Positions 1 to 3,000 of a stretch of 46,327 nucleotides of DNA are shown here, piece by piece. A program made the position numbers. Each line of letters opens with the position of its first letter. Position 1 is the stretch's first letter. The stretch lies in the IMG/VR virus record IMGVR_UViG_2802429244_000018, positions 1 to 46,327 of that record; one strand, given 5' to 3'. The DNA comes from a virus (lineage: Duplodnaviria > Heunggongvirae > Uroviricota > Caudoviricetes).

Positions 1-3000
1 TCATTTGTTGATTTCAATTTTGTCCCATTCTCTCCCTCGGCTGTCCCTATACCGCGCCGCCATTGAATCTGATTTATGCCCGAGAAGACGTTGAGCAAAC
101 TTATCGCCAATCTGATTCCGGTATAGCCTCGCCGACAGGCTACGCAGTTCATGGAATGTTGGCGGGTCTCCATCAAATGAGAGTCCAGATGCATTTCTCG
201 CCTTTGTAAAATACTTTGATACTGTTTTCGGGGAAAGCGGATCGTGATGCTTTGATGCGATTATAGTTTCACTGCTGCTGGCCTCCCTGCATTTCTGTAG
301 TGTATCAGCCAATGAGATATTGAGCGCGTCAATCGTTAGCGTTAGCGGAATGGCGAGTTTAGCCCCTGTTTTACCCTGCTCAATGTGAAGATGGTTGTCG
401 TTTATGTCTGACCATTTCATTCTGCACAAATCGCCGACTCTCTGCCCTGTAACGACGGCCAAATCCATCGCCAGCCTTAGCCAGATAGGGAGAGCTTCGG
501 CTGCATGGTAAATCGCGACATACTCATTAGCTGTCAGCCTTGAGCGCCTTACTTCTGACTTTGCTGTGCGGGTAGCTGTTACTGGATTCGTTTCCACATG
601 CCCCTCGGCTATTGCCTCACGAAAAACGTCAACAAGGGTTGACCTGATTAATTTTGCGGAAGCTGCTTTACCTTCTGCTACGTAGGTGTTTAGCATTGCA
701 GCCACCTCTTTCGTTGATATGTCAGTTAGCGGTTTGTCCGGCAATTTTCTTCGGATTGCCCTGATTTTGCTGGCGTAGTCGAGTAGAGTTTTCGGTCTGA
801 TACCCCTCTCGCTGAGGATTGTTTCATATCGGTCAAGCCACGCATGAAGAGTGATTGCGTCAGCGCCTTTAATCCTGTCTATCAGTGACTCACGCCCGTT
901 GTCTGATAGCAACTCAATGTTGGCCTGTATTGCTTCTGTGATTGCCATCCTCCTGTCTCGGCCTAATCCGAACTCTTTACCCGTCCTTGGGTCCCTGTAG
1001 CAGTAATATCCATTGTTTCTTATATAAAGGTTAGGGGGTAAATCCCGGCGCTCATGACTTCGCCTTCTTCCCATTTCTGATCCTCTTCAAAAGGCTACCT
1101 GTTACTGGTCGATTTAAGTCAACCTTTACCGCTGACTCGTGGAACAGATACTCTCTTCCATCCTTAACCGGAGGAGGGAATATCCTGCACTCGCGTACCC
1201 ATCGACGAACTGTTTCAAGGCTTCTTGGGCGTCGCTGGCGTGCGTTCCACTCCTGAAGTGTCAAGTACATCGCAAAGTCTCCGCAATTACTCGCAAGGGA
1301 ACGAGTAGTGGTTGATTTTTCTCCAACAAAAAAGGAGCCGAAGCTCCTTTGATGATTAAAATTCGAATTGTCTCGCCCGAAGGCTTTTCAACATTGGTCT
1401 TGCCCGTTCGAAAACGGCGCTTGTCTGGTCAAGTCGTGTCGCCTCCCTGAGCAGTACATCTCTGTTTTTCGTCACCGCATAGAAGGTTTCAAACGCAATG
1501 TCATACAGCTTACTCGCGTATGATGAGTTAAGTTCCTTCATTATCGGGTACAGGCGTTTGCAGATGTCCTGTGCATTCTCCATCTGTACCTGCATGTAGC
1601 AGAGGAGGATGATTTCCTCGTCTGTGAATTGCTGCGCTGGTTGCATGCTGCGAAGTTTCTTTTCGCACTCGATGAAGTATCGGCGTATCTGGCGGCCTTT
1701 TTCGTTGCGCTCCACCATAGCCAGTTCTTTGGCTGTATCGAGGGTGAGGTGGTAGTCCTTGCGGTTGTGACCGCCTCTACCAGATGTTTGCTTTCCCAAA
1801 TTGGAAAGCAAAATATATTCTTGATTTTCAATGAATTCGTATTCTGAAATGCGATTTGTAATCCATGCCGCAAACACCTTTTTCACGCCTAAAAAAGCAT
1901 GCAGATCGCGGGCATTGCAGAGTAGGGCTGTTTCGTTGGCGATAGTGCCGTTGAATACGGGGATGAGTTGACTGGTCATGATGACCTCCTTTGAAGTTTT
2001 AGTTAGCAATCACCAGTTAGTGGCTGGTGATCGGGTGTCAACTAGAGCCTTCAAAGATGCTCCGGGCATATTCCCCTTGCGGGTATTGTATTACGCCTCT
2101 CCACCCGACCTTTGTACGGATGTGACTATGCCAAATTGCAGGCATAAAAAAGCCGCAAAGCTATCGGGTGCGGATGACCGCTTTGAAGTTCTAGTGCGGT
2201 CAGTATGCGATAGCTCTGGCGGATTTGTCAAATCATGTGGTCTTTATCTTGCTGTAAGCCGCGCCATTCGGGATTTTCCCCAAATTTGGGGGAAACTATC
2301 TGTGAAGTATTCACCTTTGACGGCAAGTTGCAGGTTGTCCACGGTTAACCTCCTGAGGCGGTTCTGGTAGCGGCATCCAGTGTGTTACCTGCTCAACACC
2401 ATTACCCGGCTTAATCGTTGCCTCTCCGCGCCGAAAGGTGCTTCCGGTATAGCGTGCGGAGCATATTAGCGGCTCAACCAGATCACTATCGAAATTCACC
2501 GAAATAAGTACGTTCTGATTCTTTTTCGGCATTCGCTCACTACAGCTTATCCAACCATCCTTAATGCCATTATCCTGACTCTGAAGCATGACAGCGTGGC
2601 AGGCATCCTCTACGCCCTTAACTGCATCTGCGCAGTAGTTATAGCGATTGCATTCCACTAACTTCTGCTTGAGATTTTCAATTGCTTGCGCGACATCAGC
2701 CTGTATTACGGGAACTGGCGGAACGGCGTAGACCTCAATAATTCCATTATCAATAGGCCATTCTCCATCCTTGAGGTAGTCACTTGTACCGTCAACTTGC
2801 TGTTCTGCAATGTGGAATGCACCTATTGGTTTTGCTTCCAGCGAGGCCAGTGCAATTCGTGCCAGTTCTTCCGCTTCTTCTGCTGGCAGTACAACGTTGC
2901 TACCAGGTCCGTATGTTTCGCGCCACTGCTTGATTGTCAGCAGTCGCTCTTTGGTAATAGTGGTCATGCCGTAGCCCCTTCTTGATATTTTTCAAACCAG

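Follow-up and report, generated by a model that had tools for sequence, protein, structure and literature searches.

The subject of this analysis is a 46,327-nt stretch of a caudoviricete genome (IMG/VR record IMGVR_UViG_2802429244_000018, positions 1–46,327; hereafter, the window), in which a minus-strand cassette at 1322–2231, next to the excisionase gene, carries an antirepressor-type gene behind a long 5′ leader. We propose that this cassette is a secondary-immunity unit of the phage P1 immI type built on a different RNA scaffold, in which a small structured RNA encoded in the leader would repress translation of the antirepressor (Ant) with a hypervariable specificity. Based on the sequence comparisons described below, we put the probability of this reading at roughly 0.65. 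Four points are shown by the sequence data, namely the match of the leader to a known RNA family, the order of the parts, the co-variation of the RNA with its flanking sites and the association of the family with antirepressor genes.

Antirepressor gene and structured RNA

The gene at 1356–1979 (minus strand) encodes a 207-aa protein with an AntA N-terminal domain and a P22 antirepressor C-terminal domain (Pfam AntA, 1.5e-25; P22_AR_C, 1.6e-09). The protein matched PHROG 377, "anti-repressor Ant", at 3e-92, and its homologues are labelled antA/AntB or Ant in RefSeq (Escherichia coli) and in the records of Stx phages. The product is predicted to be an antirepressor.

The leader was scanned with the covariance models of Rfam 15, where the gathering score of sRNA-Xcc1 (RF02221) is 53. 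The only full-length, above-threshold match was to sRNA-Xcc1, on the minus strand at 2110–2021 (65.4 bits, E = 6e-12). Model positions 1–87 of 87 were covered, which places the segment in RF02221 when membership is defined as a match to the full model at or above the gathering score. The preliminary description of the window had suggested that the leader could encode a small regulatory RNA, and the match bears this suggestion out as far as sequence can. No RNA was annotated at the cassette leader in the RefSeq and phage records inspected.

The RNA is predicted to fold into a three-way junction. The outer stem, P1, pairs 2110–2102 with 2037–2029 (9 bp). P2 (2098–2064) bears the invariant AAUACAAUACCCGCAAGGGGAAUA, with a near-invariant internal loop and a GNRA tetraloop, and P3 (2063–2044) has a 10-nt loop containing the segment that we call b′ (CUUUGAAG, 2056–2049). 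The single-stranded P3/P1 junction contains a second segment, a′ (approximately 2046–2039), and runs back to the outer stem; an ACCA tail (2028–2025; "aCCC" in the Rfam consensus) comes after this stem. The Rfam model stops inside a further hairpin, P4, and neither P4 nor the flanking sites a1b1 and a2b2 described below are part of it. When 90 leaders aligned with MAFFT were folded by RNAalifold, only parts of P2 and P3 were recovered, and this fold was dropped, as length differences between subgroups had misaligned the outer stem; the Rfam model and anchor-based tests were used in its place.

The founding sRNA-Xcc1 of Xanthomonas is a discrete 88-nt RNA, as determined by Northern blotting and end mapping (PMC2996969). 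The family was described as integron-borne, trans-acting and controlled by HrpG/HrpX, with predicted host targets, and the literature on Xanthomonas and Xylella treats sRNA-Xcc1 as a trans-acting RNA that is virulence-linked or carried in vesicles. The RNA of the window is a full-length member with the same three-way junction and invariant core; unlike the described sRNA-Xcc1, it is part of the 5′ leader of an antirepressor gene, and sequences on either side of it match its loops.

Co-variation of the loops with flanking sites

Two segments of the RNA are complementary to two sites between it and the antirepressor gene. The site b2 (CUUCAAAG, 1996–1989) is complementary to the P3 loop at 2056–2049 and includes the first G of the Shine–Dalgarno (SD) sequence GGAGG (1989–1985), which precedes the ATG start codon (1979–1977). 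The site a2 (UAACUAAA, 2005–1998) is complementary to the junction at approximately 2046–2039.

We compared this arrangement with other loci carrying the invariant core ATACAANACCCGNAAGGGGAA, of which at least 120 were collected from IMG/VR (viral set) and at least 120 more from one genome per species (genome set). The percentages, domain counts and loop variants reported for these two independent sets rest on the loci listed from these collections, approximately 200 altogether. The loop of each locus was compared with the 20 nt before its own start codon (cognate) or with those of other loci (non-cognate), and Watson–Crick runs were scored. Among 94 distinct viral leaders, which contain 75 distinct loop cores, a run of at least 7 nt between b′ and the pre-SD site was observed in 62% of the cognate and 1.5% of the non-cognate comparisons. 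The matched target is located at approximately −19 to −9, its end usually falling within the first bases of AGGAG. For a′, runs of at least 6 nt with a second site, between the outer stem and the first target, were observed in 77% of the cognate and 11% of the non-cognate comparisons, and this a2-type site is often inside the loop of P4.

The joint changes can be read from single loci. The window has b′ CTTTGAAG, with the upstream copy of the target (b1, see below) and b2 both CTTCAAAG. Locus L067 has b′ CTTATTTG with b1 and b2 CAAATAAG, L039 has b′ CTTTTGTG with b1 and b2 CACAAAAG, and L017 has b′ CTATGTGG with b1 CCACATAG and b2 CACATAG. Relative to the window, b′, b1 and b2 are altered jointly in these three loci, as is the P4 stem, on a similar scaffold. 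Because the loop and both targets change together, each cassette would represent a private specificity class, as in P1 versus P7.

The cognate/non-cognate comparison replaced an energy ranking of targets. A scan with a 23-nt antisense segment had been dominated by the trivial opposite-strand match and by G·U-rich chance sites, and the ranking was dropped.

Promoter, decoy and terminator-like element

A predicted sigma-70 promoter is located at 2231–2202 (minus strand), with a −35 element TTGACA (2231–2226), an 18-nt spacer and a −10 element CATACT (2207–2202). It matches 10 of the 12 consensus positions, its predicted start is near A2195, and the copy in Stx2 phage 86 is 100% identical. A promoter-like element was present in 46 of 69 distinct upstream regions, and its −10 element ends 20–29 nt before b1 in 29 of the 46. 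The distance is 12–13 nt in the window, L039 and L067; the hexamers are common to the window and L067, and the pair in L039 (TTGACA-18-GATACT) resembles them. Inspection by eye gave no convincing LexA box near the promoter. No operator was identified at 2231–2202, and the primary repressor of the window and its operators lie outside this analysis. The untranslated region had been put at approximately 300 nt in the preliminary description; the intergenic gap is indeed 331 nt long (1980–2310), but the predicted transcribed leader is approximately 216 nt (2195–1980).

The predicted transcript would begin with a second copy of the target, the decoy (2195–2181, minus strand), which is the counterpart of a1/b1 of P1. 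It consists of a1 (ACUAGA, 2195–2190) and b1 (CUUCAAAG, 2188–2181) and is complementary to the P3 loop and the P3/P1 junction of the RNA. The decoy of the window ends in AAAGCGG, where the downstream target has AAAGGAGG; throughout the family the upstream copy ends in AGCGG and the downstream copy in AGGAG. A decoy of both targets is located 54–125 nt upstream of the outer stem across the family. Loop–decoy runs of at least 7 nt were found in 75% of the cognate and 9.7% of the non-cognate comparisons in the viral set, and in 87% and 17%, respectively, in the genome set. A long-range imperfect inverted repeat had already been recorded in this leader. It has a perfect 8-nt core (2049–2056 with 2181–2188) and extends to 14 bp with a 1 × 2 internal loop (2041–2056 with 2181–2195). 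The repeat is the predicted pairing of b′a′ with a1b1, and the cognate and non-cognate decoy counts argue against a chance match.

The decoy is followed by a terminator-like element at 2181–2146 (minus strand), consisting of GCGG (2181–2178), UCAU, CCGC (2173–2170), 13 nt, GCGGC (2156–2152) and U6 (2151–2146). It comprises two alternative hairpins after b1 and would free a short a1b1 RNA of approximately 50 nt; it was absent from the output of the consensus terminator scan. A T-run between b1 and the RNA was present in 64 of 68 distinct loci, preceded in most listed loci by GCGG-N4-CCGC-N13-GCGG (read by eye, uncounted). Between this element and the structured RNA, the leader fold contains a spacer hairpin (2145–2126, minus strand; UAUGCC-UGCAAUUU-GGCAUA), whose arms L067 and L017 retain and L039 retains imperfectly, with different loops.

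Comparison with known systems

The annotated order of P1 immI is the operator Oc4, promoters, a1, b1, c4 (77 nt), a2, b2 and the icd start. The c4 RNA is processed and trans-acting; it represses Ant synthesis by pairing around the RBS (ribosome-binding site) and is the basis of P1/P7 heteroimmunity (PMC8546580; PMC12197685). In the P1 sequence, a2 (UUGACAG) is complementary to the c4 junction and b2 (GUUAGUGA) to the loop of the third c4 hairpin, and what comes after b1 (region L123:3270–3312) is GCGG-ACAA-CCGC-N14-GCGG-UAUUUUU. A search of the P1 region with an E-value threshold gave C4 (RF01695) at 68.8 bits and c4-a1b1 (RF03163) at 51 bits, both above their gathering scores, and the isrK model gave 35 bits on the a1b1 region, below its gathering score of 50. 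In the Rfam C4 consensus the fold is a three-way junction that equals the window RNA in length and topology, with b′ in the loop of the third hairpin, a′ in the junction and a CCaCC tail.

By sequence, the cassette resembles immI in all layout features compared except for a match to a model of the C4 clan. Both systems have, in order, a promoter, a1 and b1, GCGG...CCGC...GCGG with a U-rich tract, a three-way RNA of approximately 77–88 nt, a2, b2 at the SD sequence, and the open reading frame (ORF). In both, b′ is in the loop of the third hairpin, a′ is in the junction, an A-C-C tail follows the outer stem, and specificity shifts by co-variation of loop and target. As in immI, two RNA segments of the window match two downstream sites, the second of which abuts the RBS; a second copy of the targets, a1b1 (2195–2181), is upstream in the same predicted transcript; and the gene that would be controlled is of the antirepressor type by its AntA, P22_AR_C and PHROG Ant matches. 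The distance from b2 to the ATG is 10 nt in the window and 11 nt in P1. The GCGG/CCGC/GCGG series that both have after b1 is a hint that the whole cassette and that of P1 descend from a common ancestor. The precursor of c4 is a substrate of RNase P, and the window RNA has the corresponding sequence features, a 9-bp outer stem followed by ACCA, as in the acceptor stem and RCC(A) tail of c4-type RNAs.

The window also differs from P1. Its outer stem has 9 bp, compared with approximately 17 bp in c4, and its second hairpin has a long invariant internal loop that c4 does not have. There is no icd-like leader ORF, the RBS being that of ant itself; the additional hairpin P4 is located between the RNA and a2; and the host of the cassette is a lambdoid prophage rather than P1, with no C1-type operator identified at the promoter. 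In Rfam 15, sRNA-Xcc1 sits outside the C4 clan.

Two further systems share parts of the layout. The isrK-orf45-anrP region of Salmonella Gifsy-1 produces a short terminated RNA and a read-through isoform with an antirepressor-like gene; alternative pairings govern the translation of this gene (PMC4825925). The part of the window cassette that contains a1b1 and the terminator-like element is organised alike; in Gifsy-1, however, the short RNA activates translation via a leader ORF, which the window lacks, and the isrK model has no match in the window leader. In regards to P22, the sar RNA is a small RNA that blocks antirepressor translation by pairing near the start of the mRNA (PMC12197685), and the window protein shares the C-terminal domain of the P22 antirepressor. 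The regulator of the window is on the same strand as its target, upstream in the same predicted transcript, and would pair via short loops, whereas sar is transcribed from the opposite strand as a true cis-antisense RNA. The 24B_1 / d_ant system and the "functional antirepressor" of Phi24B were set aside, since the ant gene at issue there is another one, in the late region; Phi24B does not carry the present cassette beside xis.

Proposed mechanism and alternatives

We suggest that transcription from the promoter at 2231–2202 would proceed through the decoy a1b1, a leaky terminator (to 2146), the RNA of approximately 88 nt (2110 to approximately 2023), hairpin P4, a2 and b2 at the SD sequence, the antirepressor ORF and the terminator of the cassette. 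The RNA would probably be released from the leader, with the RNase P cut expected at the 5′ end of the outer stem, beside the tRNA-like ACCA tail. The released RNA would pair through b′ and a′ with b2 and a2, which would mask the RBS so that no Ant would be produced in the lysogen. Whether in cis or as a short terminated RNA, the a1b1 copy upstream may titrate the loops and set a threshold, in parallel to IsrK. Processing, action in trans, the repressive sign and the role of the Ant protein are what we infer from the layout and the parallels. The preliminary description regarded the repressor of this unit as not obviously adjacent; if the reading favoured here holds, that view is wrong, and the RNA in the leader is most likely the repressor.

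Several results weigh against this proposal. The models C4, c4-2, c4-a1b1 and isrK had no match in 1970–2260, even with E-values up to 10, so we keep the element out of the C4 family. In the genome set only 37% of the loci reach 7 nt at the pre-SD site, a figure that may partly reflect crude start-codon calls. The a′/a2 pairing in the window is short (5–6 bp, including one G·U pair). The duplex energies of the whole RNA with its targets were not clearly better than those of shuffled sequences (z = −1.9 and −1.5), and the targets did not stand out in an energy scan of the window. In addition, IsrK, the sole relative of the decoy part that has been studied experimentally, activates translation (PMC4825925), and the net regulatory sign would depend on the ratios of the RNAs.

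The minimum-energy fold of the leader also belongs here, as it pairs the decoy segment 2181–2195 with 2056–2041 and leaves the RBS unpaired. With the RBS open and the loops occupied by the decoy, a purely cis-acting switch becomes as plausible on this evidence as action in trans. The RNA would then stay in the leader, its loop and junction pairing either with the decoy (on) or with the pre-SD sites (off), and the balance would be set by co-transcriptional folding or by the short a1b1 RNA activating in trans, as for IsrK of Gifsy-1. The terminator-like element after b1, with its T-run in nearly all distinct loci, is consistent with such a switch, as is the use of alternative structures and an activating short isoform by IsrK (PMC4825925). 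Against it, the founding sRNA-Xcc1 accumulates as a discrete 88-nt RNA (PMC2996969), c4 acts in trans (PMC8546580), and the conserved outer stem with its RCC tail resembles the c4 substrate of RNase P. We consider a switch in cis only to be unlikely, though worth keeping in view; it overlaps with release of a trans-acting RNA, and the two do not exclude each other.

The leader could also act like a riboswitch, in which the invariant internal loop of P2 would bind a metabolite or protein and so choose between the alternative pairings. Across phyla the 21-nt core ATACAANACCCGNAAGGGGAA hardly varies, which is odd for a plain antisense RNA and points to a binding surface. There is no known candidate ligand, the conservation could equally serve RNase P, Hfq or tertiary folding, and specificity resides in the variable loops rather than in the invariant core. 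We regard this explanation as improbable.

Somewhat less probable still is a host-directed, trans-acting small RNA with chromosomal mRNA targets, for which the proximity of ant would be incidental. The studies of Xanthomonas and Xylella treat the family as virulence-linked and predict many targets. Yet in most loci, in many phyla, the variable loop matches sites within approximately 200 nt of itself, the downstream gene class is consistent, and host targets leave unexplained why at least 75 loop variants should each match their own neighbours.

Hairpin P4

The preliminary description had placed a perfect palindrome over the putative promoter of the antirepressor gene. The palindrome ATCACCAG-N7-CTGGTGAT (2009–2016 and 2024–2031) is perfect as described; the conserved promoter, in contrast, is approximately 190 nt further upstream, and the palindrome lies inside the predicted transcript. 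There it would form hairpin P4 (2031–2009, minus strand; AUCACCAG-CCACUAA-CUGGUGAU), which starts in the ACC(A) tail and shares the last 3 nt of the 3′ strand of P1. A hairpin of this kind occurred in 2.9% of the dinucleotide shuffles of 1980–2310, and the density in the window is 0.41 per kb. The palindrome alone is therefore only mildly unusual, and its significance lies in its conservation across the family.

Most members of the family have a hairpin starting from the RCC tail, with a stem of 4–12 bp and a loop of 3–12 nt. Stems of at least 6 bp at the P4 position were present in 39% of the loci and 7% of the shuffles, and G·U pairs account for 40 of 457 pairs. In the nine-sequence subgroup nearest the window, defined by a C(C/U)ACUAA loop, compensatory changes were found at 6 of 8 pairs; 88.9% of the alignment cells were paired, compared with 70.7% after shuffling (0 of 500 shuffles reached the observed value) and 19–49% in slid controls. 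The variable geometry, the G·U pairs and the covariation fit an RNA hairpin better than a protein operator of fixed geometry, and the covariation, together with a location approximately 165–185 nt inside the predicted transcript, argues against an operator over the promoter. That the palindrome is the DNA operator of a protein repressor acting on the ant promoter is accordingly very improbable: a perfect inverted repeat of 8 bp around a 7-bp spacer would suit an operator, and symmetric operators may also co-vary between phages, but the element is 30–52 nt upstream of the ATG and far downstream of the conserved promoter, it keeps a fixed position with respect to the RNA outer stem, its 5′ arm is the conserved RCC tail, its stem and loop lengths vary widely with G·U pairs present, and its loop often holds a copy of the a2 target.

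Distribution and downstream genes

Among the loci listed, the genomes bearing the core belong to the alpha-, beta-, gamma- and deltaproteobacteria, Acidobacteriota, Bacteroidota, Planctomycetota, Gemmatimonadota and Verrucomicrobiota, and include one Synechococcus. In the viral set, the ORF starts 100–130 nt past the core in approximately 90 of the 111 loci with a called ORF. The domains found in 70 of these 111 ORFs were Bro-N (15), KilA-N (15), P22_AR_N (12), AntA (12), ORF6N (9) and Rha (7). In the genome set, 48 of 108 ORFs carried Bro-N (25), Rha (11), P22_AR_N (5), ORF6N (3), AntA (2) or KilA-N (2). A structured leader RNA with loops that match both the RBS region of its gene and an upstream decoy, as in the c4 switch of P1, suggests that the role of the sRNA-Xcc1 family is antirepressor control and not that of a virulence small RNA.

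Toxins of the SymE family (type I toxin–antitoxin systems) are encoded by 6 of the 108 genome-set ORFs directly downstream of the core, which suggests that the same RNA device also gates SymE toxins. Approximately 40 of the 111 viral downstream ORFs had no Pfam match; many of these are approximately 80 aa long (in loci such as L011, L018, L049 and L056; e.g., MPHGAPSTPGN...) and could be icd-like leader ORFs or an unrecognised class of small antirepressors.

We extend the proposal to the whole sRNA-Xcc1 family with even odds. The family would then be a c4-type immunity device, with a decoy, a processed antisense RNA and an RBS-proximal target, rather than a virulence small RNA, and with its hypervariable loops it would gate antirepressors, and occasionally SymE-like toxins, in prophages and other mobile elements of many bacterial phyla. 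If so, sRNA-Xcc1 is a regulator of mobile elements whose real targets are adjacent to itself. Antirepressors decide whether resident prophages, including Stx phages, stay silent. If the proposal is correct, the lambdoid and Stx prophages of E. coli have, beyond CI immunity, private immunity classes based on RNA, and this RNA layer could explain which incoming phages wake which resident prophages. We found no connection between sRNA-Xcc1 and c4 in the literature searched, including two papers in which both RNAs are mentioned; subscription journals lay outside the search, and an earlier recognition is possible. What appears to be new here is the c4/immI logic on a different and very widespread scaffold, the window copy itself being, by its model match, an unannotated member of a known Rfam family.

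Copies in tandem were observed in two viral loci. The two copies in L073 (8279–8681) differ in their loops and lie 382 nt apart, and L067 (2288–2842) has two modules of different specificity. In Xylella fastidiosa Temecula1, five copies of sRNA-Xcc1 are spaced by approximately 381–386 nt, and in strain De Donno sRNA-Xcc1 adjoins isrK and C4 matches on the same strand (PMC12189769). A study of APSE phages noted a copy of sRNA-Xcc1 upstream of an ORF6N gene, with no further comment.

Cassette boundaries and neighbouring genes

The cassette is closed by an intrinsic terminator at 1350–1322 (minus strand; AAAGGAGC-UUCG-GCUCCUUU, then UUUGUUGG), for which the terminator scan reported an 8-bp stem with a UUCG loop at 1350–1331, followed by a T-run. 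The preliminary description had it insulate the cassette from xis-int; the orientation of the cassette is that of the pL-type operon, and antiterminated transcripts would read through this terminator. The segment 1300–2400 was matched, mostly partially, in 1231 of 5426 complete E. coli genomes. Matches in E. coli and Stx phages begin at window position 1328 and mostly end at approximately 2343, some reaching 2385–2400, and the genes flanking the matched cassette differ on both sides among these genomes. The shared boundaries with different neighbours, together with the promoter-like element (2231–2202) and the terminator (1350–1331) of its own, agree with the earlier view of the cassette as a self-contained, portable unit.

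No difference separates the window from a RefSeq E. coli copy, Stx2 phage 86 and two viral contigs over the stretch between the −35 element and the ATG (100% identity). The leader (1980–2231) is 100% identical in copies with differing Ant proteins (L002, L005 and L120), that of L120 being 54% identical to the Ant of the window. An identical leader with a divergent Ant places a mosaic junction just inside the ORF, and the leader thus behaves as a unit that can be exchanged.

The genes around the cassette are all on the minus strand. A lambda-type integrase is encoded at 1–1074 and an excisionase (Pfam Exc) at 1052–1270. In the closest RefSeq match ybhC lies beside the element, at what we take to be the lambda attachment region. 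On the upstream side the cassette is adjoined, on the same strand, by genes for a DUF551 protein (2311–2967) and an HNH-endonuclease-like ORF (2964–3329); a DUF4752 protein replaces the DUF551 protein as the neighbour of the cassette in other phages. A near-perfect palindrome, TTTCCCCAAA-T-TTGGGGGAAA, is located at 2274–2295, in the interval that separates the DUF551 gene (end at 2311) from the cassette promoter, approximately 43 nt upstream of the −35 element. The lack of a minus-strand T-run sets it apart from a canonical terminator, and it could be a protein-binding site; the related promoters of L067 and L039 have no such palindrome upstream. Elsewhere in the prophage, two adjacent tRNA genes are located at 20665–20817 on the plus strand (Rfam tRNA, 55 and 61 bits).

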